The notes beneath the pieces were generated by a model. It saw only the letters and a program-made list of their open reading frames with translations, was not told the DNA's origin and ran no database searches. The position numbers and the translations under genes were made by a program. Below, one piece after another: positions 11,069 to 29,078 of a stretch of 32,000 nucleotides of DNA. Source of the DNA: Shewanella sp. GD04112 (lineage in GTDB: Bacteria > Pseudomonadota > Gammaproteobacteria > Enterobacterales > Shewanellaceae). The stretch spans positions 2,470,530-2,502,529 of the forward strand of contig NZ_JAOEAL010000001.1 in assembly GCF_029835735.1 (NCBI RefSeq). The letters run 5' to 3'. Every line of letters starts with the position of its first letter. Position 1 is the first letter of the stretch.

Positions 11069-11239
11069 ATGGCTAAATCACTGAACGAACTTAGAAAGAG
11101 GCTTAAGCCACAAGTGCAATTGGCTGCTAGAGCTAAAGCAGAAGAAATTCTCGCTGAAATGAGCATGAAAGATGTGACTAAATCGCGTGGTCATAATGAG
11201 GCTACTGTCGAATTTCTGATTCCAGAAAGAAAAAATTAG
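11069..11239 (+). pseudogene. Short XRE/HigA-like antitoxin N-terminal fragment (56 codons)
   Basis: Strong SD aaggaggttattATG. MAKSLNELRKRLKPQVQLAARAKAEEILAEM resembles the N-terminal leader of HTH antitoxins, but the ORF stops before any HTH could be encoded. Confidence 0.35.
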
Positions 11240-11399
11240 TGGCAAAAGAAATGGATAAAACTAGGTAGCGAAGTAGTGGTGATTCAACCAACTTGAAATT
11301 AATTTGCCCCTTTCTTTGTTTCGCATGACCAAGTTAGCTCAGCTTGGTATTGAACCGTTGACCTAATTTTAGTAATGCTACAAGTGCCTACTGTTCTAG

Positions 11400-12733: not shown

Positions 12734-12759
12734 GTAATGCCTGTTTTTGCTACATGTTA

Positions 12760-12808
12760 ATGTATACAGACTATACATCAATAAAAACCACAAGTATATT
12801 GGGTATAC
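12760..12808. promoter_or_regulatory. Two GTATAC-containing palindromes in the divergent promoter region (candidate operators)
   Basis: ATGTATAcagacTATACAT (12760-12778) and GTATAttgggTATAC (12794-12808). Both lie between the WYL gene start (12733) and the operon start (12910). Confidence 0.4.
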
Positions 12809-12909
12809 CACTTACCAAACTCAACTTACTAAATTTGCGATAGAAAAATTGGTATTCGAGAAACATGGTAAAAATAGTGATCTAAAACGAGGAGCTTGCG
12901 CAGTTTCCT

Positions 12910-14241
12910 ATGTTCCAAACAGAAAGACTATCAGCTCTTTTAAACCAGGTTCGAATGAACGAGCCTGCATTACACATTGAGCCAAACGAATACCTTTATT
13001 TGGCAGCCATGAGCTTATGGAATGTAAACGACGATGACGATTACCGACTTGTCGACCCAGGATATAAGGAGGAACAGTGCAACGAAATATTCTCCTACGT
13101 TGACAGGTGGCTGGGTCAAGACGACATCACCTCATTCCGGACAAGTAATTTTCTAAAACGAGCTGTTGAACAGGGCCTCGTAATGCAGGCCGGAAGCTCG
13201 TTAAGAAACGCTGATGGCTTCTATCGACTTACTCAGCTGAGTCACGACCTCCTCAAGCCCTTTACCGGCGACACATTGATACAGAAAGAGTCACTTTCTC
13301 AGAGATATGTACGGTTGGAGATCTTGCTTGGGAACCTACTCGTCTTGAAGATAGAGGATGACGAAGAGTGGGCTAATGAGATTAAGGCTCAGCTACCTTC
13401 ATTTAGGGACCTTCTCGATGGTATTAACAAAAACCAGGAGGCCTTAATAAAAGGGTTTCAGCTTCAACGCAGCTCGATCCAGTCAGCAGCCAGCGGCTCT
13501 CTTGCGCAACAAATGCAGCACTTGATTGAGTTAATTGACGAGATTGCAGGCCAAATAAGGGACCTAAAATCGTTGATACTGAATGGGGCGGACAATGTGC
13601 TTTCTCTACTTCATGAAATCAAAGAGATGGCACATAACAGAAATGCTCCGATCAGACTTACCAATGCTATGGCTGATATTCATGACCAGCTGGATTCTAT
13701 TCGTCAGTTCTCTGGGCACTCTCTTCTGGAGCTAGCAGAGTTCTTTGAGCAAGTTTTATCCACTATCCGCCTAAAAATCACCCTAGATCCAAACGCGAAT
13801 CTCAATTTATTGATTGAAAAAGCAGTCCTGCAAATGGATCGGATGCCTTGGTCAATCTCTATTCTTGCGCCAGATCCTGTTGTGGAGCTCAGGGATTGGG
13901 AGGCTCCGCCTCCACCTTTGGAAAACGAACTGCCAAATGATGGCGACCCTGAAGTCATCCTTAGAAAGACCCCTAGCGACTACCTAGAAAAATTAGCTAA
14001 GGGACTCGTTGCGAGAATGTATGAGAGCGATAACGAGGTCGATATTTCAAAAGTTGCCGACCAGATCCTTTCCAATGAAGAGTTTCAATATAAAGACCGC
14101 CATCGGTTGCTGTTTTTCATCTTCGATGAGTTGATAAAAAACGGAGATTGGACACGCCCTGCCTATCACCCTGAGTGGGTACAATTAGCACACGATAATA
14201 ACGTTGAAATTGAACAACAGTGGTTCAAAAAATATGACTGA
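12910..14241 (+). CDS. jetA: MukF-like kleisin (JetA/MksF-class) subunit
   Basis: 443 aa; E. coli MukF is about 440 aa. The N-terminal winged-helix region ..FLKRAVEQGLVMQAGSSLRNADGFYRLTQLS.. resembles MukF ..[30 protein letters not shown]... There is an acidic/proline linker (WEAPPPPLENELPNDGDPE). The C-terminus EWVQLAHDNNVEIEQQWFKKYD resembles MukF [20 protein letters not shown]. The E. coli strings are from memory. Confidence 0.7.
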   Translation: MFQTERLSALLNQVRMNEPALHIEPNEYLYLAAMSLWNVNDDDDYRLVDPGYKEEQCNEIFSYVDRWLGQDDITSFRTSNFLKRAVEQGLVMQAGSSLRNADGFYRLTQLSHDLLKPFTGDTLIQKESLSQRYVRLEILLGNLLVLKIEDDEEWANEIKAQLPSFRDLLDGINKNQEALIKGFQLQRSSIQSAASGSLAQQMQHLIELIDEIAGQIRDLKSLILNGADNVLSLLHEIKEMAHNRNAPIRLTNAMADIHDQLDSIRQFSGHSLLELAEFFEQVLSTIRLKITLDPNANLNLLIEKAVLQMDRMPWSISILAPDPVVELRDWEAPPPPLENELPNDGDPEVILRKTPSDYLEKLAKGLVARMYESDNEVDISKVADQILSNEEFQYKDRHRLLFFIFDELIKNGDWTRPAYHPEWVQLAHDNNVEIEQQWFKKYD

Positions 14242-15016
14242 TCATCTATTTACACACGCTCAAGACTCAAAGAAACAGTACCTTACACTAGATGATGTAA
14301 TTGATGACCCCCTATTCGCGGATGTAGATTATCGCCTTAGGGGCGGGGTAAACATTACTAGTGAAGATGACCGGTTACATACCTTTCTAGGAGAGACGGA
14401 GAGTGTGCTTCGCAAGTTTTACGGCAAGTTACACCTGGCTCTAGAAGTCACGCCTGAGAAAGTTTATTACCTAAGGCCACAGCGTCGTTCAAATGTTCCT
14501 ACGACCCGATTGAACCAATTAGAAATGGTTATGGGTCTAACGATAGTTGCAATGCAATGGGAAAAAAATGCGACTGATTTCGAATGGATCCCCGTTGATT
14601 TTCTTATTGAACGATTGAAGTCTCAGCTGTCGGACGAACGGTTCGCTGAGTTGTATCGCCGTAAGCCGGGCATTCAGACAGACCATGATGTAGGGCGTGT
14701 GAGAGAGGAAACGTTGAAGAGACTCTCTAGACTGTCACGTCTGAGTTTTATTAGGCTCAACAGAGATGAGCAGACTTTCTGGGCAACTAATGCGATCTAC
14801 AGGTTTATCGAACCTTTGAAAGGCTTGAGCAGCGAAGACGAGTTGCCAGGCCGCATAAGTTCGTTAATCCAAGAGGGTTTTCTTACCGACTCACCTTCGC
14901 CCAGAGAAGAGTTAAGAGACACGCCAAGAACAGAGTCTGAACATTGGTCATCAGAAGGCCTAACTATCGAAGGTGATACTCGCGATATGTTTGATGCGGA
15001 GGAATATGATGCGTAA
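14234..15016 (+). CDS. jetB: MukE-like KITE (JetB/MksE-class) subunit
   Basis: DPLFADVDYRLRGG...FYGKLHLALEVTPEKVYYLRPQRRSNVPTTRLNQLEMVMG parallels E. coli MukE NPLFPALDSALRSG...[40 protein letters not shown] (from memory). It has an acidic C-terminal tail. ATG 14234 overlaps the upstream stop (ATGACTGA). Confidence 0.75.
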   Translation: MTDHLFTHAQDSKKQYLTLDDVIDDPLFADVDYRLRGGVNITSEDDRLHTFLGETESVLRKFYGKLHLALEVTPEKVYYLRPQRRSNVPTTRLNQLEMVMGLTIVAMQWEKNATDFEWIPVDFLIERLKSQLSDERFAELYRRKPGIQTDHDVGRVREETLKRLSRLSRLSFIRLNRDEQTFWATNAIYRFIEPLKGLSSEDELPGRISSLIQEGFLTDSPSPREELRDTPRTESEHWSSEGLTIEGDTRDMFDAEEYDA

Positions 15017-18000
15017 TTACCCATACATAAAGAGCCTGTCGCTTGTGGGCGTCAACGGAGTCTCTGCCAGAACCCTCGATTTAGTTAATCCTCATGAACA
15101 TCAGACTGATAGGCAATATGGCACCGTGGTTAGCCTTTTAGGCAAAAATGGTTCAGGGAAAACGACGCTACTTGGGACCTTTATGTTGGCTCTCTTACCC
15201 GATATTCGCTCGGTCAGTTTGGGAACATCGGATAATTTTACTCAGACGCAGAAGATGCAGGACGCAGAAATGTTTGAGCGCTTGGGTAATCCGTCTCTTA
15301 TTGGGTTAGAGGTTGTATCTCGTGCTGGTGAAAGAGCGCTGTTTATTGTTCGCTCTGAGCGAGAGACGGGGTCCCGCTTGAAGTTTGACACGTTCAGGGT
15401 TGGGTTGTTCGATAGTTTAGCACCACTTGATTTTCTTATCGTTCGTAACGGCAACATGGTTACGCCCAGAACTATAGATGGTATTCGAGATATAGCTGCC
15501 GAGCATGGCTGCCGACTACAAAGCTTCGACAAGATTGATAAATACATGCTGGCGTTGTTTAACGATGGTATTTTGCCCAGAACATTCAACCGTTCTAATG
15601 AGCGTTACCAATTAGGTCAGATTTTTCACAGCGCCATGTCAGGAAAAAGAGATCAAGCTATCGGCCGAGATCTAGCTGATTTCCTAATGACGCACTCAAG
15701 GACAAATATCAAAAGTGTGGTCGATGTGTTGTCTGGAACAATGCGAAAGCTTAGGCAGACAAGAGATGATCTGGCGCACAACTCCAAAGACTATGCGTTT
15801 TTCAAGGAGTTGTTAGAGAAGTCCTTCACTGTATCAGCTAAAGCATGGGCTCAAGCCGAGTACAATTTTTCTCGAGCAGATAAAGAAGCTACATCCTGTC
15901 GACAAGATGTTTCAGAGTGCAAAGTTTCTATTGAGAAGAGTGATCAGGATCTTACGGAGTGTCGTTCGAAACTAGATACAAGCGTTGAGAATAGAACATC
16001 ACTCGAGCAGGAAAGTGAACAGCTAAAGCCAAGACTTGCTTCTGCTGTTGAGGGCGAAATCTTCTACAAGCAGGGTAAACAAGCCTCTGTGAGTCTATTA
16101 AAGAAGGAAGCTCAACTTTACGAGAGTTTGAGTTTGTCCCAGTTGGCTGACGAAGGCGCTGACGCGTCGCGCAACAAAGTTGAACAAGCTAATCAAGATA
16201 TCTTGGATATCCAAGCACAGCTCGCAGATGTGCAAGAACGTTTTATCCTTCTTGAGAAAAAGGCGGGGCAATACCGAAATGCGAAGTCGTTATTAGATAG
16301 CGTCAAGAGCTGGTGTGGCGATAGCTTTGAACTAGCGAAGCTTAAGGGCATGATTGAAGAATACACTGCACAATCCAAACAGCTAGCGCTAGAGGCGGAC
16401 CAGCTGGGAAACAAGCTCAATAGTGCAGAGAATATCAATGAAATTCATGCTAAAGCTGCATCACTGATTCGACGCGCTGGCGATAGCATTGACCCAAACG
16501 TCGCAAAGAATTGGTTTATCTCTACAGAGCTTAGACTCGAAGAGGAACGCCCGCTAGCCGTTAGCCTTGAACAGATGAGAAATGGATTGAGTGCGTTGAA
16601 AAGGAATCATCGTACTGTGAACCGCATGCTTGATCGCTTTAAGCAAGCAAAGTTACCACGCATGCCTTCCAATGAATCTGAGTACCAACAGCTTACGGAA
16701 GACAGAGGAGAAGCTCTTGAGTCGGCGAAGGAGGTGAAAGCGAGTGTCGATGCTAGGTATGAGGACGAGCGACATATCCAGGAAGAGCTAAAGATCGAGG
16801 TTTCACGTCTCAAATCGCTGCGAACAGAGTGGCAAAATTATCAACCTGCGGTTGCACGTTTATATGAATGCTTCCCTGATACTCAATTCACGGCAGAGAT
16901 GTTAGATGGGTTGATTAAAAACACGCAGAGAGAACTCAGGTCATTACGAGAGAATAACTCCCGAATAGAGAGCAATATATTTTCTTTGAAAGAGAGGATC
17001 CTTTCACTCAGCAACAGGGAAACTGGGTCATTGGAAACCCTCCAACGTTTTGCCAGCGATGTTGGCGGAGTGGCCGTAGCGGACTTGTATAGCGATATAC
17101 CGTTAGAAGAAGCTGGATTCACCGAAGCGGCTTTAGGTCAGCTTATGTGCGCTATCGTAGTGAATGACCCGAGCGATGCGGCTAGAACGCTATTAGCTGA
17201 ATATGGTGATAACTGGCCATTACCTGACGTGATCTTAATGACTGTAAAAAACCACAGTCCTGATCAACTACGGAGTGGTGGCTATGACGCGGACCTGTTT
17301 TTTAAAGATCTTAGTCAAGAGTTTGTAGGTGCTGATCTAGACCTTAATCACAACGAAAATGATGTTCCTTGGGTAGTTCTCAGTGAACCCTTTGGCGGTA
17401 TACGTGTTAGCGGGGTGCCTACTGAACCAGTTTTGGGTAAAGAGGCTCGGGATAAGCTGATAGCAGATCTACAAATTGAGTTAAATTCAAAGCAAACTTT
17501 GTTTGACAGTAACGATGAGAATATATCGCTGCTGCAAAGTGGCCTAGAGCAAGCCAATCGAATCAACGTTAATCCCTCATTGGCTTTCGCTGTTGAGCCT
17601 AATGTTGAGCTCAAAAAACAGAAATTACAACAACAAGGTAATAAGGTAGCTGACCTGTACTCTCAAACGTTGCAAGCGACCAATCGCGTAAAAACCTTAG
17701 AACTACAATGCAGTTTGCTTGAACAGCATGCGGATTCAAGTGATTTGCTAGACGTTAACTTCGACAAGGAGATTATGGAAGCAGAGGAACAAATCATACG
17801 TTCTGAAAAGGCTAAAAAGTATGTCGATAGGTACGGCGGTACCTTCTCGCAGATAAAGCAGCAATACCCGAAGATTCGAGAAGATTATCAATCTGACATA
17901 GACACGCTAAAGCGACAACATCAACTCGCTGAACAAGATCTTAGCAATACCAACAACCGCAAGCGCGATTTAACCTCGCTTAACCAAGTGGCGAATCATC

Positions 18001-19562
18001 TCGCTGACGATTACGAGCAAGCACAAAACGATCTTGCGAAAGAAGATGGAAACGTAAGTTCATTGCGTGAGAGGCACAAACAGAAACGTGTCATGCTCGA
18101 TGAGTTGAAGGTTCAGTTGAGAGAAAGCGAAGATAAAGCACGCAAAAACAAAGAGGTACATCTTAAGCTTCAATCGGAATATTCTGTGTTAGAAGAGCAG
18201 GTTGCGGAATCAAAACGTAGTTTGTCAAAGCTGACTTACCCTTATTGCGAAGGACTCGAAAAACAACTTTCACTCGATAGCGAAACGATATCTAAACGAT
18301 TGAGAGCGGCTCAAGAGCAATGTGAATCACTCCAACTTAAGCAAGTATCATTAACCGAACGCCATAACACCCTACTCAAGCAAGTAGAATCCCTACAGAG
18401 TACATCAGTGATTGCAGAAGAGGCGCGTGAAAATGCAAATGGTATAAAGCAAAAGGTGCTGGATGCTCTGCCTGCCGGAGCCACAAAACATAAGCTAGAG
18501 CAAGAAATGGACGTCTATTTTAAACTGATGCATGAAGGTGAGGCCGTCCAATACACTAATGGGATTTACGCAATATCTGGATTGGTCAATCGCTATGGTT
18601 TGAGTCGAGATGATGAGTTCTCCCAAAAAATAAATAGTTTTAATCTAGAGGGAGGGACCACCCTGCCTAGTCTTTGCCAGCTGCATAGTGACGCTATTTC
18701 TTTGTTTCGTCGGCAAGCCCGAGGGGACATTATTCGTAGTTCCGAGCCGACAGAGATGCTTACACAATTGGATAGTGCGTGTAGTCTCGCTAGGAGAACA
18801 CTTGAAAGCGCCGAAGAGCAGTTTCTCACAGATAGAAATGAACTAGGAAATGCCATTGCCCGTCGTGTACAGGATGAGCAGAAAGCCATAAGAAGGCTAA
18901 GTGCTGAAATGATAGGAATAAGCTTTGGGCAAGTTGCGGCTATTCGTCTAGTACCTAAAAGCGTCCCTCATTTCGAAGCTACTTTGAAGGCTTTGAGAGG
19001 AAGCGACGATGTCATGGACGATCTCTTCAATAATGCTGAAGATGTAGAAGAAGCGCTCGCAACACTATATCAAAAAACCACTGGTGGCCGGATCGAGGGA
19101 GAAAAGCTGCTTGACCATAAGAACTACATCAATGTGGTAACAGAAATCCAGAGAGTTGGTAGTGAAGAATTTGAGTTATTGGATGACAAAACACTTTCAA
19201 CAGGAGAGCGAATTGGCTCTGGATTGGTTGTCTTAATAGCAATTCTAAAAAACTGGGGACGGGTCTCACATGAAAAACAACCTTTCTTAATCCCGTTAGT
19301 AATGGATGAAGCATCACGTTTGGACTCCGACGCTCAGAGAACGGTGCACCAGTTGGCGGTAAAGACCGGAAGTCAGATTGTAATTGCCGCACCTGAGTCG
19401 CAAGGAAAGATATCAGGTGTTGGCTATCAACTTGTCAGAAGTGCTTCTAAAGCAGGTAACAAAGAGAGCCGTGTAATCATTAGTGGGATCCGGGATGCTG
19501 ACAGTTTAGGGATTGATGAAGAAGCATTTATCGATTCGGTTGTGAGTGGGGCGGCGCATTGA
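15006..19562 (+). CDS. jetC: MukB-like SMC ATPase (JetC/MksB-class), 1518 aa
   Basis: - SD GGAGGA precedes ATGATG at 15006.
- N-terminal head: IKSLSLVGVNGVSARTLDL, Walker A GKNGSGKTT (15141-15167), ALLPD.
- Very long coiled coils.
- Hinge-like VADLYSDIPLEEAGFTEAALGQLMCAIVVNDPS.
- C-terminal head: SFGQVAAIRL...LSTGERIGSG...LVMDEASRLD (D-E at 19305-19310)...QIVIAAPE...GYQLVR.
- Each motif matches MukB motifs as I recall them. Confidence 0.85.
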   Translation: MMRNYPYIKSLSLVGVNGVSARTLDLVNPHEHQTDRQYGTVVSLLGKNGSGKTTLLGTFMLALLPDIRSVSLGTSDNFTQTQKMQDAEMFERLGNPSLIGLEVVSRAGERALFIVRSERETGSRLKFDTFRVGLFDSLAPLDFLIVRNGNMVTPRTIDGIRDIAAEHGCRLQSFDKIDKYMLALFNDGILPRTFNRSNERYQLGQIFHSAMSGKRDQAIGRDLADFLMTHSRTNIKSVVDVLSGTMRKLRQTRDDLAHNSKDYAFFKELLEKSFTVSAKAWAQAEYNFSRADKEATSCRQDVSECKVSIEKSDQDLTECRSKLDTSVENRTSLEQESEQLKPRLASAVEGEIFYKQGKQASVSLLKKEAQLYESLSLSQLADEGADASRNKVEQANQDILDIQAQLADVQERFILLEKKAGQYRNAKSLLDSVKSWCGDSFELAKLKGMIEEYTAQSKQLALEADQLGNKLNSAENINEIHAKAASLIRRAGDSIDPNVAKNWFISTELRLEEERPLAVSLEQMRNGLSALKRNHRTVNRMLDRFKQAKLPRMPSNESEYQQLTEDRGEALESAKEVKASVDARYEDERHIQEELKIEVSRLKSLRTEWQNYQPAVARLYECFPDTQFTAEMLDGLIKNTQRELRSLRENNSRIESNIFSLKERILSLSNRETGSLETLQRFASDVGGVAVADLYSDIPLEEAGFTEAALGQLMCAIVVNDPSDAARTLLAEYGDNWPLPDVILMTVKNHSPDQLRSGGYDADLFFKDLSQEFVGADLDLNHNENDVPWVVLSEPFGGIRVSGVPTEPVLGKEARDKLIADLQIELNSKQTLFDSNDENISLLQSGLEQANRINVNPSLAFAVEPNVELKKQKLQQQGNKVADLYSQTLQATNRVKTLELQCSLLEQHADSSDLLDVNFDKEIMEAEEQIIRSEKAKKYVDRYGGTFSQIKQQYPKIREDYQSDIDTLKRQHQLAEQDLSNTNNRKRDLTSLNQVANHLADDYEQAQNDLAKEDGNVSSLRERHKQKRVMLDELKVQLRESEDKARKNKEVHLKLQSEYSVLEEQVAESKRSLSKLTYPYCEGLEKQLSLDSETISKRLRAAQEQCESLQLKQVSLTERHNTLLKQVESLQSTSVIAEEARENANGIKQKVLDALPAGATKHKLEQEMDVYFKLMHEGEAVQYTNGIYAISGLVNRYGLSRDDEFSQKINSFNLEGGTTLPSLCQLHSDAISLFRRQARGDIIRSSEPTEMLTQLDSACSLARRTLESAEEQFLTDRNELGNAIARRVQDEQKAIRRLSAEMIGISFGQVAAIRLVPKSVPHFEATLKALRGSDDVMDDLFNNAEDVEEALATLYQKTTGGRIEGEKLLDHKNYINVVTEIQRVGSEEFELLDDKTLSTGERIGSGLVVLIAILKNWGRVSHEKQPFLIPLVMDEASRLDSDAQRTVHQLAVKTGSQIVIAAPESQGKISGVGYQLVRSASKAGNKESRVIISGIRDADSLGIDEEAFIDSVVSGAAH

Positions 19563-20509
19563 TGCATGGACTACTGGAGGATGTAAAGTTAACACCTAAG
19601 CAGGCACTGGCACTTATTGATAAGCTTATTGAGCGCGGGAAAGTGTTGCCCAACCAGAGAGATAGTTTACTGATTGAGCGCCTTGAGCAACTTGGCATAG
19701 TGAAACGAGTGGGGAGTTACTGGCAGCTGTGTGAGCCCCAACGCATTGAGAGTGTTCGTAACCAAATAACGCAATATACTTTGCAAAAAAACAGGCCTGG
19801 TATCTTACGAAAGATGCCCGTTGTACATCATAAAAGTGCTGCTGCCTGGCGAGGACATAGCAAAAGTGGGCAAGGCGAGGCTCTTCAGAAAGGTCAACTG
19901 ATAAGTACAGACGATGTAGTACGGGTCCGCACTCAGAAGACCGGGTTCGTAATATACAGCGATAACGCCACGATTGATACTGACTTGGAGACTCTGCAAA
20001 GGACTGAAGTCAGCTTACCAGAACGGTTGTACAAAGACGCTCATGCGCCCTGTGTCGCTGGGGTAAAGTTGGTGTTGACTGTCGAAAACTTGGGCACATT
20101 TGTTGACTTCCCCATGGTGGATGGACTCGTATTGGTTTACTCATCAGGGAATAACTTTGCATCATCGGTTTGTTTTATCAAGCGCTTCTTGGAAGAGGTG
20201 ACCTGGGCACACTTCCCGGACCTTGATCCCAATGGTCTGATCATATCAACGCAAATGGCAGATACCCTCAACAAACCTTGCAATGTTTGGATTCCACCTC
20301 ATTGGGATAGGGTCCGAGCTCAGCCGCTGGTTTCTGGTAAAGGAAAAAAGGTATGGGGGGAAGCCCCTGCCTGCCCTGAAATCGCAAGTTTGCAGGAAAC
20401 AAGCCATTGGGTTGAGCAAGAGGTTCTCGTCTTAGATCAACGAAGCGTCAAAGCCGTCAGTGAGCTTGTTAGTGAGCCTAAGCTCCGGCTAATAACTCTT
20501 CAATACTAA
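19562..20509 (+). CDS. jetD: JetD/MksG-type Toprim (topoisomerase-VI-like) nuclease subunit, 315 aa
   Basis: The start overlaps the jetC stop (TGATG). Toprim signature: VLTVENLGTFVDF (Glu codon 20084-20086), WAHFPDLDPNGLII (DxD 20228-20236), then HWVEQEVL. The N-terminus looks winged-helix-like (LIDKLIERGKVL..LEQLGIVKRVGSYWQL). Confidence 0.7.
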   Translation: MHGLLEDVKLTPKQALALIDKLIERGKVLPNQRDSLLIERLEQLGIVKRVGSYWQLCEPQRIESVRNQITQYTLQKNRPGILRKMPVVHHKSAAAWRGHSKSGQGEALQKGQLISTDDVVRVRTQKTGFVIYSDNATIDTDLETLQRTEVSLPERLYKDAHAPCVAGVKLVLTVENLGTFVDFPMVDGLVLVYSSGNNFASSVCFIKRFLEEVTWAHFPDLDPNGLIISTQMADTLNKPCNVWIPPHWDRVRAQPLVSGKGKKVWGEAPACPEIASLQETSHWVEQEVLVLDQRSVKAVSELVSEPKLRLITLQY

Positions 20510-20699
20510 AGATTTTACGATTGACAGTTCAGGCGGCAGTTAATCAAACATTGTACTCGGCGAAGCTGATGTTCGTGCAGTGTGTCGACAATTCCGCTAC
20601 AGGGAAAGTCTCAATTCATTGCCTGGCGAACAATAGCCTAGCTATGCCCATAAGAAGCAGTTATCTGACTAGTTTACTTCTTAAGAATAAGGATACTTA

Positions 20700-22010
20700 A
20701 TGAGTATTGAGAAGTTTAGAAGCGTGGAGGAACTAAAACAGTTCTTCGAAGAAGGAGGTAACCCTTGGTTTGATGCAGAATTTTCTCCTCAGACTCAGAG
20801 TATCGTCGAAGCATTGGATGCAAAAGGAGCCTTTCTCAATAAGTGGTGGGTAAGGACCGCCATGGATTGGAAGTGTCCCGCCTGTAAAAGGACTAAGCCC
20901 CAAATAGCCAAACTAGATAATCGTAGATATGCCTCCTGCAAACTGGAGGAGCATCACGATCACATGAAGGATACGGTGCGCACGTTGTTCGAAGAAATAT
21001 CTTCGAACAGAGAAGTCGTTGTTGCAACTGAGCTAGCTAAGCGGTTTGCAATCAGGACGTCCTTTGCAATTTCCGCTTACGATAACACGGTGATTTGCGC
21101 GGATTGTAATAAAGCAGACGGTATTGCAAAACGGATGGTCAAAACTCACAGTGACTTTTCATACTCTCCAGCAGAAATTGGGCGATTTGTAAAACCATCA
21201 GATAATCGAGAGCATGAAATTGACGCGGATATCGCCAAGGAAATTTGGAACGAGAATCTGGAAACGTTCAATAAGCGTATGCAGTTGGCAAAAGTTATAG
21301 CGGAGTTGGCTGCCAGCGATTCACATTGGTATCAACCCTCAGAACCAACAGCCAAGCAAGTCAATGATTCTGCCAATTACAAGTTTAACTTGCGTGGATT
21401 AAGAGACCTTCACGATGATCCTGAAAAGCTTCTATACAATACAACGCCTTTCAAGGGAAACCACTCATCATGGAGATTGAATCCCAAGCCTTTCACAAGT
21501 ACGAGACCAACTGATGGACAAATAGCACATTTATCTAACACCAGGGGGCGGTACTGGAACAGGTACGACGACAGCTGGCAATGCCCATGTTGTGGTCGTT
21601 TAAAGCGGGAATGTCTTAAGCCGTCTAAAAATAACCCTTGGGTGTTTGAAGTAAAGGCCATTCTAGCTCATGATTCTGAGCATCAGTCTTTTGCTGAAGA
21701 AATTAAGGTGTGCAACGAATGTTTCAATGCTGCAAACCATCTTGGCCAGGAAGCAATAAAAGAAGCCAAAGAACAAGATGAGACGGTAGATGTATATTTT
21801 CCACATAGCTTGATACAACTGGAAGAGTTGAAGTCTGTTATAACGCCGAGATTACACTCCTCACATATCATTGATAATGACTTGGCTGAAAACGTGGTTC
21901 GCAATGCCATCAGGCGCATTATTGATGAAGACTATAACCAATCCCCAAAGCACAAGATGAAGCTGCAAGAACAGTTCAGTACAATGCTTTATGGTGGAAG
22001 TTGTGAATAG
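20700..22010 (+). CDS. Protein with two endonuclease-VII/HNH-like zinc modules (436 aa), otherwise unassigned
   Basis: SD aaggatacttaATG. Module 1: WKCPACKRTK...KLEEHHDHMKD...(about 47 aa)...VICADCNKADGIAKR. Module 2: WQCPCCGRLKREC...ILAHDSEHQSFAEEIKVCNECFNAANHLGQ. The layout CxxC...H.DH...CxxCN..(D/E)G is that of the T4 endonuclease VII branch of the HNH fold. Confidence 0.55.
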   Translation: MSIEKFRSVEELKQFFEEGGNPWFDAEFSPQTQSIVEALDAKGAFLNKWWVRTAMDWKCPACKRTKPQIAKLDNRRYASCKLEEHHDHMKDTVRTLFEEISSNREVVVATELAKRFAIRTSFAISAYDNTVICADCNKADGIAKRMVKTHSDFSYSPAEIGRFVKPSDNREHEIDADIAKEIWNENLETFNKRMQLAKVIAELAASDSHWYQPSEPTAKQVNDSANYKFNLRGLRDLHDDPEKLLYNTTPFKGNHSSWRLNPKPFTSTRPTDGQIAHLSNTRGRYWNRYDDSWQCPCCGRLKRECLKPSKNNPWVFEVKAILAHDSEHQSFAEEIKVCNECFNAANHLGQEAIKEAKEQDETVDVYFPHSLIQLEELKSVITPRLHSSHIIDNDLAENVVRNAIRRIIDEDYNQSPKHKMKLQEQFSTMLYGGSCE

Positions 22011-22164: not shown

Positions 22165-22530
<366 letters not shown>

Positions 22531-22857
22531 CTATGCCACTACACTCATATATTAGAACGTGAGAGCGTGGAGCGGATCGCTGCTCATCCTGGAAATCCGA
22601 TTGGCAATATTGTCGAACTCTGGGAAGAACAGGAAATCGGTGTGACTAAAGAAGCAAAGTTATTGAAGGTAATTGACCGCTTATTGCCATTCTTACATAA
22701 CATGACTAGCGAAGGCCAAGCTTGGAGGGATAATGGAATACATAAAGCCCAAGTGTTGAATATGCACCAATTTATCGAGAAGGAAAGTCCTGAAATTTTT
22801 TCATGGTTTGTTATACAGCTCGAATATGCCGTTGAACAAGGTTGGCTTAAAGCATGA
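22531..22857 (+). pseudogene. 3' fragment of an HD-domain (HD_3-type metal-dependent phosphohydrolase) gene
   Basis: ..IVELWEEQEIGVTKEAKLLKVIDRLLPFLHNMTSEGQAWRDNGIHKAQVLNMHQFIEKESPEIFSWFVIQLEYAVEQGWL matches the C-terminal half pattern of HD_3 proteins. The catalytic HD part is missing, and the frame is open right up to the IS3 terminus at 22530. Confidence 0.55.
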
Positions 22858-23065: not shown

Positions 23066-23566
23066 ATGGCTCGGTATTCACCAGAACGTAAAGAAGCGAT
23101 CCTTAAAAAATTATTACCTCCTCACAACTTAACGGTCGCAGAGGTCGCTCGGGAAGAAGGCATCGCGGTGCAAACCTTGTATCATTGGCGAGATATTGCC
23201 AGAAAAGAAGGTCGCCCCGTGCCAGGTAAAACATTAACAGCCGATGATTGGTCGGCTGAAGCAAAACTTGCCGTGATTATTGAAACAGCGCCGCTGTCGG
23301 AAGCGGAGATAAACCAGTATTGCCGTGAAAAGGGCTTGTTCCGCGAGCAAGTACAGCAGTGGAAACAGGATTGTTTAGCTGGTTTTCAAACCTCAGAAGT
23401 ACAAACTAAAACCATTAAACAGCAGGCTAAGGCTGACAAAGCCGAAATCAAATCGCTGCAACGGGAATTGCGCTATAAGGAGAAAGCGCTGGCTGAAGCT
23501 GCTGCGTTACTGGTGCTCAGAAAAAAGCTCAATGCGCTCTGGGGGGACGACAGCGAGGAGAGCTAA
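23066..23566 (+). CDS. IS3-family transposase OrfA (HTH + leucine zipper)
   Basis: MARYSPERKEAILKKLL..LTVAEVAREEGIAVQTLYHWR is an HTH, followed by a coiled-coil tail KAEIKSLQRELRYKEKALAEAAALLVLRKKL. Confidence 0.8.
   Translation: MARYSPERKEAILKKLLPPHNLTVAEVAREEGIAVQTLYHWRDIARKEGRPVPGKTLTADDWSAEAKLAVIIETAPLSEAEINQYCREKGLFREQVQQWKQDCLAGFQTSEVQTKTIKQQAKADKAEIKSLQRELRYKEKALAEAAALLVLRKKLNALWGDDSEES
23521..23527 (+). promoter_or_regulatory. Programmed -1 ribosomal frameshift heptamer A AAA AAG
   Basis: The heptamer is in the X XXY YYZ register of orfA (codons AGA AAA AAG). The -1 frame is open from here into orfB (..AQCALGGRQRGELTPLPERIALI..). Confidence 0.7.
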
Positions 23567-23571
23567 CCCCC

Positions 23572-24621
23572 TTGCCTGAGCGCATAGCATTGATTGCCTT
23601 AATCCAAGAGGCCTATACCAATGGTGCTCGCCTTTATAAGGCTTGTGCTGAAACGGGCCTCAGTAAGCGTACCTATCGACGTTGGTATCGAGAAGGTCAA
23701 GTGCAAGCTGATTTAAGGCCAACAGCAGCTCGACCAGAGCCAGCAAATAAACTCGAAGAACATGAGCGACAACAGATATTAAGTGTGTGCAATCAAGCGG
23801 AGTACGCCAGCTTACCCCCGTCGCAAATTGTGCCAACATTATTAGATAACGGGATTTATATCGCCTCGGAATCCAGCTTCTACAGAGTGTTAAATGCTCA
23901 TGGTCAACTTAACCATCGTGGCCGCACTCAGGCTGCGGTCAATCGAAGCAAACCGTTGAGTTATCGGGCAGATGGGCCGAATCAAGTGTGGTCATGGGAC
24001 ATCACTTATTTAGCCTCAATCGTCAAAGGCCAGTTCTACTATTTGTACCTGTTTGAAGATATTTACAGTAGAAAAATAGTGGGTTACGAAGTTCATGAGC
24101 AAGAAAGTGGGGAATATGCCGCTGCGCTAATCCAACGCTGTCTGTTACGCGAGCAATGCTTTAACACGCCATTAGTGCTGCATTCTGATAATGGGGCGCC
24201 GATGAAGTCACTGACCATGAAAGCCAAGCTGGAAGAGCTTGGTATTACGGCATCATTAAGTCGGCCGCGGGTGAGTAATGACAACCCCTTTTCAGAGTCG
24301 TTATTTAAAACGTTGAAATACCGCCCACAGTGGCCGGCATCAGGTTTTAGCTGCTTAGCAACAGCAAGAGAATGGGTGGAAAAGTTTGTAACCTGGTACA
24401 ACGATGAGCATAAACACAGCCAGCTAAATTTTGTCTCACCAGGGCAACGTCATGCACTGCAAGATGGCGCTATTTTAGCGAAGCGCAAGAAAGTGCTTGA
24501 GGCGGCGAAGGAAAGAAAACCGATGCGTTGGTCTACAGAGATCAGAAATTGTGAAGCGGTTGGCGCTGTAACACTCAACCCAGATAAGGCACCAGAAGAA
24601 GGCGTAATAAATGCAGCTTAA
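23572..24621 (+). CDS. IS3-family transposase OrfB (DDE integrase core; expressed as an OrfAB fusion)
   Basis: WSWDITYL (D), LVLHSDNGAPM (D), SNDNPFSESLFKTLKYR (E); rve-type core. The frame is -1 relative to orfA. Confidence 0.8.
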   Translation: MPERIALIALIQEAYTNGARLYKACAETGLSKRTYRRWYREGQVQADLRPTAARPEPANKLEEHERQQILSVCNQAEYASLPPSQIVPTLLDNGIYIASESSFYRVLNAHGQLNHRGRTQAAVNRSKPLSYRADGPNQVWSWDITYLASIVKGQFYYLYLFEDIYSRKIVGYEVHEQESGEYAAALIQRCLLREQCFNTPLVLHSDNGAPMKSLTMKAKLEELGITASLSRPRVSNDNPFSESLFKTLKYRPQWPASGFSCLATAREWVEKFVTWYNDEHKHSQLNFVSPGQRHALQDGAILAKRKKVLEAAKERKPMRWSTEIRNCEAVGAVTLNPDKAPEEGVINAA

Positions 24622-25106: not shown

Positions 25107-26018
25107 TTAGAAAATGGAAATTTATCTCCTCAAGATGCTGAGAAGCAATTAAGCGACATCTTAGTTCCGTTATTAAATGAAGATGGGTATAACATTGTTC
25201 AGACTCCTTTTCGCGGTGACATTGGAGTAGATTTTATTGCTGAGAAGCAACTTTCCACTAACCTAGAGCAAGTGGGAATCGAATATAAGCACTATAAATC
25301 TGCTGTAGGTGTCGATGCTGTTCGCCGGTTACTGGGAACAACATTTACTCACAACTTTGACCGTTTAATTTTAGTAACCAAATCTCGTTTTACTAAAGCT
25401 GCCCTTGAGCTTGCGAATTCGGCTTTACCAGTCAAGCTTGAACTAATTGACTTAGATGCTCTAAGAGCGTGGGTGCAGAGAGCAGAAAAAACTGAAGACT
25501 ATGACTTCGAACTAGTAAATATTATTCGTTCCAATATTAGCGAGCGGTTAGCAGTGCTAATAGCTAAAAATCCGCGATATCTAATGGATATTGAATGGAG
25601 AGAGCTTGAGTATGTTATTCAAACCGTTTTTGAAGAGCTAGGGTTCAGCGCAGAACTTACCCCAGGAAGCAAAGATGGCGGTAAAGATTTAGTGCTTACC
25701 TGTAGGATTTCTGGGCAAGATCATACATATTACGTAGAGCTGAAGCACTGGAGATCCCAACAAAAAGTAGGTGGACAAGCTGCTAGAGGTTTCCTGAAAG
25801 TGATTGTTAATGAAGAAGTGAATGGTGGGTTATTTCTTTCTTCATATGGTTATTGTGAGAATGCGTTTGAAATGTTGACTGAAATTGACAGAAAACATTT
25901 AAAGTTCGGCGATCAGAAAAAAATCGTTACATTATGTACACAATACGTTAAGTCTAAATCTGGTATTTGGTCTCCTACTAGCGGTTTATCGGAAGTATTG
26001 TTTGAACAAACTATATAA
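25107..26018 (+). pseudogene. Tandem Mrr-like (PD-(D/E)xK restriction-endonuclease fold) domain protein with no credible start for domain 1
   Basis: Domain 1: GYNIVQTPFRGDIGVDFIAEK...VGIEYKHYKS..VGVDAVRRLLG...LILVTKSRFTKAA. Domain 2: LGFSAELTPGSKDGGKDLVLT...YYVELKHWRS..VGGQAARGFL..GGLFLSSYGY. The frame is open from 25107, immediately after TAG 25104-25106. The first in-frame start (GTG 25272) falls inside the E-x-K motif of domain 1. Confidence 0.5.
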
Positions 26019-26069: not shown

Positions 26070-26277
26070 CATCTTAGCTTTGCGTTAACCCATAGAAATT
26101 TTTATCCGAAAATGTCGAGTTAGAGTTAAGGCTTTAACTCGGAATTGTCCAATTACTTGATAGAGCATTTAATACAAATGAAAGAATAGGGCGGAATAAA
26201 AGTAGTCACAAAATTAGTGTTTTAAGATGCTTATTACATTGACAAATGCCATACATTTTTTACAAGGAAGCATCTTC

Positions 26278-26748
26278 ATGATATCAGTAACTTTTCACGA
26301 AAACTCGAGGCGTACACGTCAATTCAAGTCTGAAAATGGAGCTTTGAAGGCCGTATGGAAATGGCTTAAAGCAACAGAAGACGATAACGCCTATGCAGTG
26401 ATTATTGGTCCTATGTATTCTGAGCCAAGAGTCATCAAAGGCTGGCAAGAACTTCCATTCAGTGAACCTGAAAATTTAGACTTTTTGCAGACTAAGGAAT
26501 GGCGTCGACTGAGACAACAGGCCTTTGAGTTATATGGAAACTTTTGTGCCTGCTGTGGTAGAGGTCCAAAAGATGGCGTAGTGCTTCATGTAGATCATAA
26601 AAAACCTCGTTCGAAATATCCAAAACTTCAAGATGACATCAACAATCTTCAGATTCTTTGTGAAGAACACAACCAAATGAAATCCAATACATCTGAGCGC
26701 GATTGGGCTCAGTGGTGCCAAGCCAACTCTGTACGTGGCACTAAATAG
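26278..26748 (+). CDS. HNH endonuclease (small, stand-alone)
   Basis: Classical motif CACCGRGPKDGVVLHVDHKKPRSKYP....NLQILCEEHNQMKSN. The ATG at 26278 follows aaggaag; the track start at 26227 is less likely. Confidence 0.8.
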   Translation: MISVTFHENSRRTRQFKSENGALKAVWKWLKATEDDNAYAVIIGPMYSEPRVIKGWQELPFSEPENLDFLQTKEWRRLRQQAFELYGNFCACCGRGPKDGVVLHVDHKKPRSKYPKLQDDINNLQILCEEHNQMKSNTSERDWAQWCQANSVRGTK

Positions 26749-26834: not shown

Positions 26835-26904
26835 ATTCTCACGTATTTCAGAATAGAGCACCTAAATCAGAATAGTGAGAACATTCTGATTCTCAGTGAG
26901 AATT
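26835..26904. repeat. Cluster of the same about 24-bp units as at 10436-10537, here in opposed orientations (mini-palindromic block)
   Basis: attctcacgtatttcagaatagagc (26835-26859, + orientation). atcagaatagtgagaac is a partial copy. cattctgattctcagtgagaat (26882-26903) is in inverted orientation and is part of IR-R. Confidence 0.8.
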
Positions 26905-26944: not shown

Positions 26945-27178
26945 TCAATTTAACATAATATACATTGTGCGCATCCTTTTTTTTGAGGAATGTTCACACA
27001 GCCTTTTTGAGTCGGCCAGTATTAAGAGAACGTGCCATATAGGGAACATGATCACGATTGAGACATAGAACTCAGCCATAGATTTAAACTCAATTTCAGA
27101 TTCAATAGGAACCCAAAGAGTAACTTTAGTTAGACCAGAGGCGCGCTTCTTAGCTTCATACTTAGAGTTGCGACTCAT
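26945..27178 (-). CDS. Small ORF with a ribbon-helix-helix-like N-terminus whose 3' end reads through dif
   Basis: MSRNSKYEAKKRASGLTKVTLWVPIESEIEFKSMAEF resembles RHH/DUF3018-type small regulators. The last about 10 codons (..KKRMRTMYIMLN) are encoded by the dif sequence itself. Confidence 0.4.
   Translation of the reverse strand: MSRNSKYEAKKRASGLTKVTLWVPIESEIEFKSMAEFYVSIVIMFPIWHVLLILADSKRLCEHSSKKRMRTMYIMLN
26948..26975 (-). other. dif: dif site (XerC/XerD chromosome-dimer resolution site), doubling as the prophage junction
   Basis: The plus strand reads ATTTAACATAA TATACA TTGTGCGCATC. The reverse complement of E. coli dif (GGTGCGCATAATGTATATTATGTTAAAT, from memory) is ATTTAACATAATATACATTATGCGCACC, giving 26/28 identity. 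Confidence 0.8.
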
Positions 27179-27368: not shown

Positions 27369-27400
27369 GGGAGGGGGCGCTCCGCTTGCCTCCCCCTCCC
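27369..27400 (-). terminator. GC-rich hairpin immediately after the zot-like stop codon
   Basis: gggaggggg (27369-27377) pairs with ccccctccc (27392-27400) across a 14-nt loop. There is no clean U tract on the minus strand, so a terminator or attenuator role is tentative. Confidence 0.35.
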
Positions 27401-28740
27401 TACCTATTTGCAAGCGAGTATTCACGGTCAGATTGATTAGTTTCAGGTTTGACCTTAATCAAGGGCTGACAAGTGATAAAAGTAGTAAAGTCATTAAATT
27501 TAAGTCTGGCTAAACATTCAGTTATAGGTGAGACAACAAATCCAACCGAACTAGGTAAAAAAACCTCATCAGTAACGGGATTGTAAAAGGAATAATCATA
27601 ATGAACTAAGCCATTGGATTTTTTTACATACTGGGAACCTGAAATATAAACATCCTTTGTAGCATCAGAAACGAACTTAGTTAAAAGCTGTGTTTCAGCA
27701 TCATCAAGTAAAGATGATGATTTAGGCAAAAGAGAAACTTTTGACTTGGGCTCATTAGGGGATGCAGTCTCAGGCGTTTGGAGAACTGAGTCAGGGACAG
27801 CAGAGGTTTTATCAAAAAACAATGTATTGGCAAATGAGTAAACAGAAAAAACAACAACAAAAATAAGAATAATCAAAATATAAAATATCTTGGGCATCTT
27901 AAATTTATGGGTATGCAGTTCAGCACTAAAATAAGAGCCATAGAAATTCGTTGGCCTCTTAATTAATGACTTTTGGCAATTTTTGACATCGTGATAATCA
28001 TCAACATCAAAACTTTTTGAGTTCTGATAACGAGCGACACGGTTAGAGTTAAACGCATTATGATAGTGAACATGGCGATTGACTAAACGCCTTACGTTAC
28101 TATCTAAAAGCATTCTATCCTGTGTAATTAAATGTATATCGTAACCATCATGGCGGTGAGTCTCAAATTTTGAAATATGAGGTGGAACTGTAGAACCCAC
28201 AGGACGAGGCGGGAAAAATTGCTGACACTCATCAATTAGGATAATGCTCTGCTTTGGTAGATTGAACCAATCCTTAGGGTTAGCAAAATGAGTAAAATGT
28301 AAATTCAAGTGCTCAAGGTGTGAGAACTCAACCTTATCGTAAGGCATATTGCTTAGGAACTCATCAAGCAGAGCCGTCTGCTTTGATGAATAAAGTTTTT
28401 TAACCCAAAACAGCCAAGTGTCTAGATGGTTGGCCGTATTGTAATAAGGCTCAAGCCAAGGAACGTCAGACAGTTGAATCAAATCACCGTTATCGTGAAC
28501 CCGTTTGATAATTTTACGAATGCGCTTTAGTGCCTGTTTGTTCTTCAAACGGTACATATAAAGACCGTAGAACCAGCCAGAAAAACTAGAGGCAACCTCA
28601 AAATCAAGCATCAACAACTTGATGTTATTATAAAAAATTGGCCTAGTGCCATTATTAGCGCCAACAAGATAAGCAATGGTATTCAGCGATTTAGACGCGC
28701 CCGGCTTCCCTGTAACTAACTCTAACATTATGCGCTCCAA
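27400..28740 (-). CDS. Zot/pI-like phage assembly ATPase
   Basis: N-terminal P-loop ELVTGKPGASKS, a Walker-B-like IILIDECQQFF, a single central TM helix (IFYILIILIFVVVFSVYSF), then a periplasmic C-terminal domain. This is the architecture of filamentous-phage gene I/Zot proteins. Confidence 0.8.
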   Translation of the reverse strand: MERIMLELVTGKPGASKSLNTIAYLVGANNGTRPIFYNNIKLLMLDFEVASSFSGWFYGLYMYRLKNKQALKRIRKIIKRVHDNGDLIQLSDVPWLEPYYNTANHLDTWLFWVKKLYSSKQTALLDEFLSNMPYDKVEFSHLEHLNLHFTHFANPKDWFNLPKQSIILIDECQQFFPPRPVGSTVPPHISKFETHRHDGYDIHLITQDRMLLDSNVRRLVNRHVHYHNAFNSNRVARYQNSKSFDVDDYHDVKNCQKSLIKRPTNFYGSYFSAELHTHKFKMPKIFYILIILIFVVVFSVYSFANTLFFDKTSAVPDSVLQTPETASPNEPKSKVSLLPKSSSLLDDAETQLLTKFVSDATKDVYISGSQYVKKSNGLVHYDYSFYNPVTDEVFLPSSVGFVVSPITECLARLKFNDFTTFITCQPLIKVKPETNQSDREYSLANR

Positions 28741-29078
28741 TCAACAGGTGATTTGTCGCCCGGCTTACGCCAAACAAGCTGCCTAGAGTAGCCGCTTTTG
28801 GAGACTCCTTTTAATACCATAAGCGCAACGCCGCTAGACATTGCAATATTTAAAGCCGTATCAATCCCAAGTAGGTGAATAAAAGTGGCTATATGAGGAA
28901 ATATAATTGAAGATGCAGAAGCATTTAAACGGTTAATTATTTCGTCAAAAATAAAACCTACTCCCGCATAAGTAACTGTACCAAAGCCAATAGCAACACC
29001 AATACGAGCAACAGAAGCGGTAATAAATTGACCAAGGAAAGGAAAAATAGAAGCAAGTAATAAAGGTATGAATTGCAT
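28728..29078 (-). CDS. pVI-like minor coat/membrane protein
   Basis: 116-aa polytopic hydrophobic protein located between the pIII-like and Zot-like genes, with overlapping stop/start. Assignment is positional only. Confidence 0.5.
   Translation of the reverse strand: MQFIPLLLASIFPFLGQFITASVARIGVAIGFGTVTYAGVGFIFDEIINRLNASASSIIFPHIATFIHLLGIDTALNIAMSSGVALMVLKGVSKSGYSRQLVWRKPGDKSPVDWSA

Follow-up and report, generated by a model that had tools for sequence, protein, structure and literature searches.

Endonuclease VII of bacteriophage T4 is a homodimer with two active sites. In the classification of His-Me finger nucleases it shares a single Endonuclease_7 group with the restriction enzyme Hpy99I; the same classification describes the zinc-knuckle/treble-clef relationship of the superfamily and includes inactive His-Me fingers, such as Smad MH1 and the nuclease-like domain of ENPP, which retain DNA or substrate binding or a role in stability (PMC5714182). 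The other described system of relevance here is canonical MksBEFG/Wadjet, which consists of four genes and has MksG/JetD as its executing nuclease (PMC10123090). We have analyzed a gene of Shewanella sp. GD04112 lying in a stretch of 32,000 nucleotides (contig NZ_JAOEAL010000001.1, positions 2,470,530 to 2,502,529), hereafter called the window. This gene, hereafter the target, encodes a protein of 436 amino acids (aa) with two zinc modules and starts 190 bp after the stop of a JetD-like gene, exactly as described in the first-pass annotation of the window (coordinates are collected in table 1). The results of our analysis indicate, with a probability of roughly 55%, that the target is a horizontally mobile gene for a DNA endonuclease of the His-Me finger (HNH/beta-beta-alpha-metal) superfamily, which probably needs no partner and is nearest to the endonuclease VII group.

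Module 1 carries the strings WKCPACKRTK (residues 57-66), KLEEHHDH (81-88) and VICADCNKADG (131-141), all of which had been recognised previously, even if the gap between H88 and C133 measures 44 residues and not the 47 then estimated. In an alignment of 30 diverse homologues, which we used to judge invariance throughout, W57, C59, P60, C62, R64, K66, H85, H86, D87, H88, C133, C136 and N137 are invariant, with D140 being kept in at least 90% of the sequences. Module 2 contains WQCPCCGRLK (residues 293-302) and VCNECFNAANH (337-347), within and beyond which W293, C295, C298, C338, C341 and E351 are invariant; its 'HDSEH' and 'C-x-x-C-F-N' elements, formerly taken as degenerate catalytic residues, lie instead in variable columns and are chance look-alikes. 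The module strings are far beyond chance, because their residues are invariant among the 30 homologues and their pattern holds in most of 243 representatives of the family. Exactly one HHDH is present in 237 of these 243 representatives and two in none, whereas exactly four CxxC pairs, two per module, are found in 217; the layout of one catalytic-looking copy and one Cys4-only copy is thus ancient and fixed. A subgroup of about 500 aa (58 of the 243 representatives, 470-560 aa; P0233-P0335) has some 80 extra residues and retains the one-HHDH/four-CxxC pattern.

Each module is followed by a conserved tail. Tail 1, in which F153, S154, I160, F163 and H172 are invariant, aligns with tail 2 and also with the tail of smaller, single-module proteins that are presented below. 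The tails close on an invariant histidine, namely H172 (21213-21215) and H389 (21864-21866) in the target and H125/H128 in single-module proteins. T4 endonuclease VII possesses nothing equivalent to this tail, which could bind a second metal, touch the DNA or take part in a dimer interface. Comparison of residues 40-215 with residues 276-415 by hhalign gave a probability of 98.4% (E 5e-15) and paired the knuckles, the CxxC helices and the trailing 'FSxSPxEI...H.I' segments, so that on profile evidence the two halves are an internal duplication. The AlphaFold2 (AF2) model of the target, with a mean predicted local distance difference test (pLDDT) of 85.9, shows the same order of elements in both halves, i.e. 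knuckle, beta hairpin, beta strand and helix, the module 1 insert being placed inside the hairpin with helices at residues 89-102 and 111-124.

Module 1 can be connected to endonuclease VII by way of the single-module proteins. These proteins of 141-160 aa (about 80 clusters), encoded on plasmids and in metagenomes, share with the target the knuckle, the H-K-H-H-D-H and CxxCN..DG motifs and the FSFSP tail; they have no helical insert, and their His cluster is separated from CxxCN by 14-17 residues, as compared with 14 in the T4 enzyme. Under default hhalign settings, their subfamily matches target module 1 at 99.9% (E 3e-37), target module 2 at 98.8% (E 4e-17) and T4 endonuclease VII at 91% (E 1e-6, 54 columns). 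One single-module relative has a precomputed match to PF02945 (Endonuclease_7). Moreover, when the single-module profile was run with hmmsearch against 177,635 PDB sequences, endonuclease VII ranked second, at a sub-threshold E of 0.1, and was the sole nuclease, as well as the sole non-rubredoxin family, near the top, with an alignment covering HxDH...CxxCNaa[DE]G. Presumably, the single-module proteins act as homodimers in the manner of endonuclease VII and represent the ancestral form from which the two-module family evolved. Examples (L059 5977-6435, L058 5938-6384, P0336-P0415) are found on small plasmids near resolvase and toxin-antitoxin genes.

Direct comparison with the T4 enzyme is consistent with this connection. 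The sequence of T4 gp49 used here is identical to PDB 1E7D/1EN7, and an alignment of its family was built from it. Native module 1 gave only a local CxxC...HxDH match to this family in hhalign (23%), whereas with the insert excised the whole core was aligned (67.6%, score 30.6, the maximum of 30 column shuffles being 16.3). With relaxed gap penalties, native module 1 reached a score of 48.0 (maximum of 25.2 in 40 shuffles and 19.0 with the reversed profile), in an alignment that spans the insert unaided. In these alignments H85-H86-D87-H88 corresponds to T4 H38-L-D40-H41-D-H43, in a register that places either D87-H88 or H85-H86 against D40-H41, and C133-x-x-C136-N137-x-A-D140-G141 has the same spacing as T4 C58-x-x-C61-N62-x-A-E65-G. 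The reading of 'HEHHDH' as the HxHxDH motif of metallo-beta-lactamases was rejected, since its first His (position 83) is not conserved (the window has Glu there) and the domain falls well short of the required size.

Several results weigh against the proposed relationship and need to be considered together. The target has no match to the Pfam Endonuclease_7 or HNH models even at E<=10, and profiles of the protein, of the family and of the insert-excised core retrieved only rubredoxin knuckles and His-tag artefacts from the PDB. The link with endonuclease VII therefore stands on a transitive profile chain combined with motif identity and predicted topology. Foldseek searches with full and isolated-module models found nothing significant in PDB and BFVD; of the two beta-beta-alpha-metal folds which the first-pass annotation had suggested to look for, the order of secondary-structure elements is predicted in both halves, without a significant fold match. 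Finally, the predicted template modelling score (pTM) of the AF2 model is 0.52, too low to define the relative packing of the two halves. As to the profile comparison of each half, also suggested previously, the halves align to each other and, via their single-module relatives, to T4 endonuclease VII. It is through the latter chain that the earlier view of module 1 as endonuclease-VII/HNH-like is borne out, and the related idea of an active-plus-degenerate pseudo-dimer within one chain fits the half-against-half match, the family-wide asymmetry and the same chain. Taking all these elements into account, module 1 is very probably an endonuclease-VII-like His-Me finger and module 2 its degenerate paralogue.

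A non-catalytic function, in which treble-clef or rubredoxin-like fingers would serve for the binding of DNA or protein or for redox reactions while HHDH would be structural or provide an extra metal site, appears to be the least likely of the alternatives considered here. Rubredoxin is indeed the sole family matched directly by HMMER, being found in 28 of the 30 members at permissive thresholds (best E 4e-7), with assorted zinc-finger noise as the only other Pfam matches of all 30 members at E<=10, and the lack of a nuclease fold in Foldseek searches points in the same direction; yet the match is confined to the WxCPxC knuckle and the window protein attains 12.4 bits against a cut-off of 23. 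A simple zinc or iron protein would also be difficult to reconcile with HHDH, N137 and D140 being invariant or nearly so at the catalytic positions and spacing of endonuclease VII, or with the loss of catalytic residues from module 2 alone while its zinc ligands are kept, which is the pattern to be expected of an enzyme joined to a pseudo-enzyme. The label 'rubredoxin' is wrongly attached to some members of the family.

What we infer of the nuclease activity, pseudo-dimer packing, substrate and defence role of the target can be set out as follows. The protein derives from an ancient duplication of a unit of about 140 aa comprising the zinc knuckle, the beta hairpin, the CxxC helix and the 'FSxSPxEI...H' tail. 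The N-terminal copy has retained the full putative catalytic set, i.e. H85-H86-D87-H88 with N137 and D140, together with the zinc site C59/C62/C133/C136, whereas the C-terminal copy, reduced to the zinc site C295/C298/C338/C341, would most likely be a DNA-binding or structural partner. The halves may pack like the two subunits of the endonuclease VII homodimer, thereby forming a monomer with a single active site. Because the endonuclease VII homodimer has two active sites and the target fuses an active copy with a dead one, nicking or asymmetric cleavage is predicted, or else a double-strand cut upon further dimerisation. Phosphodiester cleavage would depend on Mg2+, with His as the general base and Asp/Asn/Asp as metal ligands on a zinc-stabilised beta-beta-alpha scaffold, and DNA binding would be supplied by module 2 and the tails. 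The DNA to be cleaved would be recognised by its structure (branched or distorted DNA) or by modification, and not via a partner protein. Since no conserved immunity, methyltransferase or antitoxin partner was found among the neighbours at family loci, self-sparing would be achieved by substrate selectivity or expression control.

The target had been considered an orphan, a view that our searches overturn. A search of 5.8 billion proteins retrieved homologues forming 98 clusters at 90% identity, with lengths of 400-450 aa, from Gamma- and Betaproteobacteria and some Alphaproteobacteria; their database labels are 'hypothetical' or automatic 'rubredoxin' throughout. An exhaustive HMMER search with the module-1 profile recovered 642 clusters at 50% identity (E<=1e-3), 181 of which have E<=1e-30, and in most of them the profile matches two or three stretches per protein. 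A protein 99% identical to the target is on record from Shewanella halotolerans. Comparison of the target with Pfam, NCBIfam, PADLOC and PHROGs returned no useful match, with no family of the PADLOC-DB v2 defence models reached at E<=0.1; PADLOC and Pfam scans showed no homology to JetA, JetB, JetC or JetD, HMMER found no match among PDB sequences, and no description of the family was found in the literature on endonuclease VII, rubredoxin or HNH proteins in defence or integron contexts. The family is without a name in Pfam, NCBIfam, PADLOC or PDB, in agreement with the initial impression that it did not correspond to a named family. It is almost absent from phage records (1 of 50,697), and 2.9 million viral contigs yielded only 3 weak single-module matches. 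In a plasmid collection, 16 records match the family, mostly with partial or single-module relatives. The Klebsiella homologue has no detectable DNA relative in any complete genome of E. coli.

To place the family in its genomic contexts, we surveyed 47 genome loci, 91 immediate neighbours of which were scanned with profiles. The scanned neighbours include dGTPase, GajB, LmuB, Ppl, AbiL, AriA, a DRT-type reverse transcriptase (RT), SAVED, HipA and one MksE, and dGTPase, GmrSD and restriction-modification genes form part of the contexts of the family. The Klebsiella oxytoca homologue resides in an integrase island adjoining smpB, with Gabija-like, TerB and BrxC-like genes; that of Dickeya is accompanied by type IV secretion system and ParE genes; that of Herbaspirillum lies beside RT-SLATT and PIN genes; and that of Acinetobacter follows a type II CBASS operon at 160 bp. 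Homologues of Azospirillum, Salmonella, Pantoea and Idiomarina are found at the borders of integrases, AlpA or integrative and conjugative elements (ICEs). In Vibrio campbellii, the homologue (10001-11299) belongs to a chromosomal integron with 24-30 attC-type repeats and lies between two consecutive repeats (9838-9990 and 11280-11424); it is thus a complete single-gene integron cassette. Across diverse taxa, the annotated loci and the neighbour scan repeatedly place the family within mobile elements and close to genes of known defence systems. No neighbour family occurs in more than 6 of the 47 loci and there is no fixed partner. Neighbour clusters 1, 2, 4 and 6 were discarded as co-occurring genes, as they are antisense or alternate-frame ORFs (open reading frames) inside the conserved gene in GC-rich genomes. 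In two unrelated genomes a gene for an nSTAND3 NTPase adjoins the homologue: in Dickeya (L054, 7749-11218) the two genes share a strand and that of the NTPase lies 39 bp upstream; in Photobacterium (L003, 11451-15257, minus strand) it is convergent and 173 bp downstream. A sensor-effector pairing of the two proteins is possible.

That the gene is carried by integrase islands, ICEs, Tn7-like elements and integron cassettes, near defence systems, suggests that the family restricts phages or plasmids, and an anti-phage or anti-plasmid role is plausible as the most economical reading of such mobile, defence-rich contexts. The same contexts, all of which are mobile elements, could instead accommodate a housekeeping or selfish nuclease, for example a resolvase of junctions or multimers, an addiction toxin or an endonuclease of the homing type. 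Junction resolution is what T4 endonuclease VII itself carries out, and single-module relatives occur on small plasmids close to resolvase and toxin-antitoxin genes, but we consider this explanation improbable: the neighbours are mainly defence genes rather than genes of replication or transfer, no adjacent conserved immunity or antitoxin gene was found in the 47 loci, the architecture with one active site is ill-suited to symmetric junction resolution, and the family is nearly absent from phages.

The first-pass annotation had left the choice between a stand-alone nuclease and an accessory of the neighbouring SMC system. The stand-alone alternative is the better supported of the two, because the Vibrio homologue is a single-gene integron cassette; nevertheless, the association with SMC operons does recur within the clade of the window, which comprises homologues with at least 64% identity to the target. 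In two metagenome contigs, one being a TARA scaffold (L072/L073), the order of genes is MukF (partial), MukE, MukB (1515 aa), JetD_C, HD protein and homologue, all on one strand with overlaps or gaps of no more than 15 bp. The operon of L072 is orthologous to that of the window, with identities of 52% for MukF, 54% for MukE, 43% for MukB, 38% for JetD and 66% for the target. Photobacterium (L003) has a different Wadjet-like operon, composed of JetD_C, proteins of 972 and 480 aa and MksE, which ends 66 bp upstream of the homologue; this locus lies within a Tn7-like element and includes a WYL regulator homologous to that of the window. An operon of the same type is present a few kb upstream of the homologue in Alteromonas (L001). 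Other loci of the clade show a resolvase, an HD gene and the homologue (L002, L066, L075), or an integrase and the homologue (L067).

These data have to be compared with the behaviour of the family at large. None of the 47 genome loci contains relatives of the MukF/E/B-like or JetD-like genes of the window, and in these loci, where the profile scan covered the immediate neighbours only, SMC operons were seen at L003 and L001 and nowhere else. For the reverse comparison, a metagenome scan with the single JetD-like protein gave nothing, and an alignment query then retrieved 73 loci with relatives of the JetD-like gene; in 44 of these the downstream sequence extends for 3 kb or more, and 14 of the 44 also have MukB directly upstream, yet neither the family nor its single-module relatives nor the HD partner occur in any of the 73. 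Given this reverse count, the lack of relatives in the 47 loci and the four-gene composition of the canonical system, the target does not belong to the core of Wadjet. The association may be facultative and restricted to this lineage, or the genes may have migrated together within one island gene pool. As to the upstream operon itself, its MukB-like protein reaches 1527 bits with the NCBIfam equivalog for MukB, the cut-off being 699, whereas the MukF-like and MukE-like proteins reach 71 bits against a cut-off of 407 and 63 against 250, respectively, and the PADLOC Jet models barely match the region 11867-20509. This four-gene Muk-type operon is found in at least 14 metagenome loci in addition to the TARA scaffold, and it may be a Wadjet variant nearer to MukBEF than to the catalogued types.

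In the lineage of the window, the target could then be an optional addition to the Muk-type Wadjet-like system, as a fifth component or a second effector, whereby the SMC complex would detect or extrude foreign circular DNA and the nuclease would process branched or cleaved DNA alongside JetD. This explanation, which we regard as unlikely even if it is the strongest competitor, would account for the tight same-strand array of the orthologous TARA operon that ends with a homologue, for the operons upstream of the Photobacterium and Alteromonas homologues, and for the 190-bp spacer of the window, in which no terminator-like or promoter-like site was detected. It is at odds with the two null counts just described, the occurrence of the family as a solitary integron cassette and the fact that canonical Wadjet is complete with four genes and has its own nuclease (PMC10123090). 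Hence, the earlier suggestion of an SMC accessory is mostly not sustained across the family, with a residue of support confined to the clade of the window (the window itself, L072/73, L003 and L001). The neighbourhood analysis proposed along with it shows homologues co-occurring with defence genes, but no conserved jet/muk link beyond this clade.

The HD gene of the same clade deserves separate consideration. It lies directly upstream of the homologue, with an overlap or gap of no more than 15 bp, in L001, L002, L066, L072-74 and L075-76, the coordinates of HD gene plus homologue being 8506-11275 in L001, 8518-11293 in L066, 7281-10093 in L072 and 3394-6169 in L075. Pairwise identities among the HD proteins are 73-93%, and these proteins match the PADLOC dGTPase model. 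A resolvase of 185 aa precedes the pair in L066 and L075, and a conserved gene of 267 aa follows it in L001, L002 and L075; the pair with its flanking genes could constitute a mobile module of two to four genes. The window has no HD gene, and no remnant of it is present in the spacer at the position it occupies in the orthologous TARA operon. On the strength of the abutting genes, one may view the target as the effector half of a two-gene system of HD (dGTPase-like) protein and nuclease, the copy of the window being a remnant or sub-optimal without its HD partner. We find this doubtful, to a greater extent than the Wadjet connection, for the pairing is limited to one marine clade and most family members have no HD neighbour, the HD protein matches a defence-protein model, and the ORF of the window is unbroken and keeps every invariant residue, with a 99%-identical counterpart in Shewanella halotolerans.

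The recurrence of the gene 3' of Wadjet-like operons in the clade of the window, usually in tight coupling with an HD/dGTPase-like gene, argues for some functional coupling and in this respect weighs against a wholly self-sufficient enzyme. A self-sufficient endonuclease of the endonuclease VII group remains our preferred reading, and it can be extended, tentatively, to a widespread single-gene anti-phage or anti-plasmid system. The latter would be an endonuclease-VII-derived fusion of enzyme and pseudo-enzyme, folded as an intramolecular pseudo-dimer, that senses structural features of invading DNA, such as intermediates of replication or recombination, or DNA on which Wadjet or another neighbouring system has already acted, and serves as an add-on effector after Muk-type Wadjet or dGTPase genes in some marine lineages.

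The surroundings of the target in the window (table 1) fit the mobile, defence-rich pattern of the family loci. The GC content is about 50% in the formate-dehydrogenase flank and drops to 38-46% at 10 kb and thereafter; the low-GC block comprises also IS3 debris, genes for an Mrr-type restriction endonuclease and an HNH protein, and, next to a dif site, a filamentous prophage. The DUF3800 remnant downstream of the target is 61% identical over 44 aa to the intact DUF3800 protein of L075, and its disruption points to erosion of the island by insertion sequences (IS) immediately 3' of the target.

Table 1. Coordinates of the target, its elements and the neighbouring features in the window.
Feature	Position	Strand	Basis or remark
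Target ORF, complete, 436 aa; predicted two-module endonuclease-VII-like zinc protein	20700-22010	+	ORF list, ATG start
Shine-Dalgarno-like AAGGA, ending 6 nt ahead of the ATG	20689-20693	+	Read from the sequence
Module 1 zinc knuckle W57-x-C59-P60-x-C62, rubredoxin-like	20868-20885	+	Invariant
H85-H86-D87-H88, putative catalytic His/Asp cluster, where the first beta strand ends	20952-20963	+	Invariant
Two-helix insert of about 40 residues (89-127) separating the beta strands of module 1	20964-21080	+	AF2
C133-x-x-C136-N137-x-A-D140-G141, second zinc pair with putative metal-binding Asn/Asp, start of helix	21096-21122	+	
Tail 1, residues 153-175, FS-x-SP-x-EI..F....N.EH.I	21156-21224	+	
Module 2, residues 293-351, W293-x-C295-P-x-C298...C338-x-x-C341...E351, Cys4-only copy of module 1	21576-21752	+	
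Tail 2, residues 366-392, FP.S.I.LEEL...I.PR.HS.H	21795-21875	+	E376 and H389 invariant
Spacer of 190 bp between the stop of the JetD_C-like gene and the start of the target	20510-20699	+	
JetD_C (Toprim)-like gene, short, last of the MukF/MukE/MukB-like operon	19559-20509	+	Pfam, PADLOC, NCBIfam
MukF/MukE/MukB-like operon genes upstream of the JetD_C-like gene	12910-19562		Pfam, PADLOC, NCBIfam
WYL regulator, divergent from the Muk-type operon	11867-12811	-	
N-terminal remnant of DUF3800 gene, downstream of the target, cut by IS3 debris	22165-22326	+	
IS3 helix-turn-helix (HTH) fragment	22270-22470	-	
HD_3 domain fragment	22567-22857	+	
IS3 orfA/orfB pair, complete	23066-24621	+	
Mrr_cat restriction endonuclease with NA-iREase1 N-terminal region	25272-26018	+	Same block as the target
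Classical PF01844 HNH protein	26227-26748	+	Same block as the target

A dif-like XerCD site, GATGCGCACAATGTATATTATGTTAAAT, is present at 26948-26975 on the minus strand, a match that was obtained in 0 of 100 shuffles; it has two mismatches with respect to the dif consensus of E. coli. The genes of a filamentous phage begin just past this site (Zot, 27400-28740; DUF2523, 28728-29078), where the cumulative GC skew also flattens. This looks like a prophage integrated at dif, in the replication terminus. A near-palindromic motif of 21 nt, ATTCTCACYGAGAATCAGAAT, has exactly two copies in the window, in inverted orientation (10436-10456, plus strand; 26883-26903, minus strand), which enclose the entire low-GC block with the WYL gene, the Muk-type operon, the target and the IS3, Mrr and HNH genes. 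The pair could represent an operator, the boundary of the island or an ancestral flank of dif. A 30-nt inverted repeat around the island was rejected as the end of an element, as the similarity stops at about 30 nt and each arm is palindromic.

If our reading of the target is correct, a biochemical identity would be assigned to an unannotated family of at least 640 clusters at 50% identity, providing a candidate single-gene immune system that has been missed by Pfam, NCBIfam and PADLOC v2. The family would also document how a natural homodimeric junction-type nuclease turned into a fused pseudo-dimer of active and inactive halves, and its compact structure with a single active site might offer a structure-specific nickase as a tool. 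The recurrent place of the gene 3' of Wadjet-like operons in one clade raises the question of whether SMC-based plasmid defences recruit auxiliary nucleases.

Among known systems, Wadjet/MksBEFG (JetABCD) is the neighbour of the target in the window, and of homologues at three related loci belonging to its clade; however, the target has no homology with JetA-D, its family is absent from 73 of 73 related JetD loci, and the nuclease of Wadjet is the Toprim protein JetD/MksG (PMC10123090). Rubredoxin (PF00301) has the W-x-C-P-x-C knuckle in common with the target, which differs in having just one knuckle matched, where the rubredoxin fold of about 50 aa has two, at 12.4 bits against 23, an 8-fold larger size and the HHDH/CxxCN signature. 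T4 endonuclease VII (gp49; 1EN7/1E7D; PF02945; His-Me finger group 13) is closest. Like the target, it has a Cys4 zinc site, with two cysteines in a CxxC knuckle and the other two in a CxxC that begins a helix, as well as a His/Asp cluster after the first strand and the C-x-x-C-N-x-A-[D/E]-G motif with identical spacing, and both proteins assemble two modules, as a homodimer in T4 and as two fused copies in the target. The target differs in falling below the Pfam model, in the helical insert of about 40 residues that splits its beta hairpin, in its WxCPxC knuckle, in the conserved 'FSxSP' tail that replaces the C-terminal helical domain of the T4 enzyme, and in its second module, which is catalytically degenerate and leaves a predicted single site per chain as against two per dimer; moreover, it resides on bacterial islands whereas the T4 enzyme belongs to a lytic phage. 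Hpy99I, a type II host restriction endonuclease of the same group, sets a precedent for a defence role of this module, even if the target family has no adjacent methyltransferase partner and no direct sequence similarity to Hpy99I was detected. Smad MH1 and the inactive domain of ENPP have kept a degenerate His-Me finger, as we propose for module 2, although they are unrelated eukaryotic proteins and the degenerate copy of the target is fused in cis to a putatively active paralogue. Compared with these systems, the family stands as an uncharacterised variant within a known superfamily of nucleases, set apart by its unusual enzyme/pseudo-enzyme architecture.

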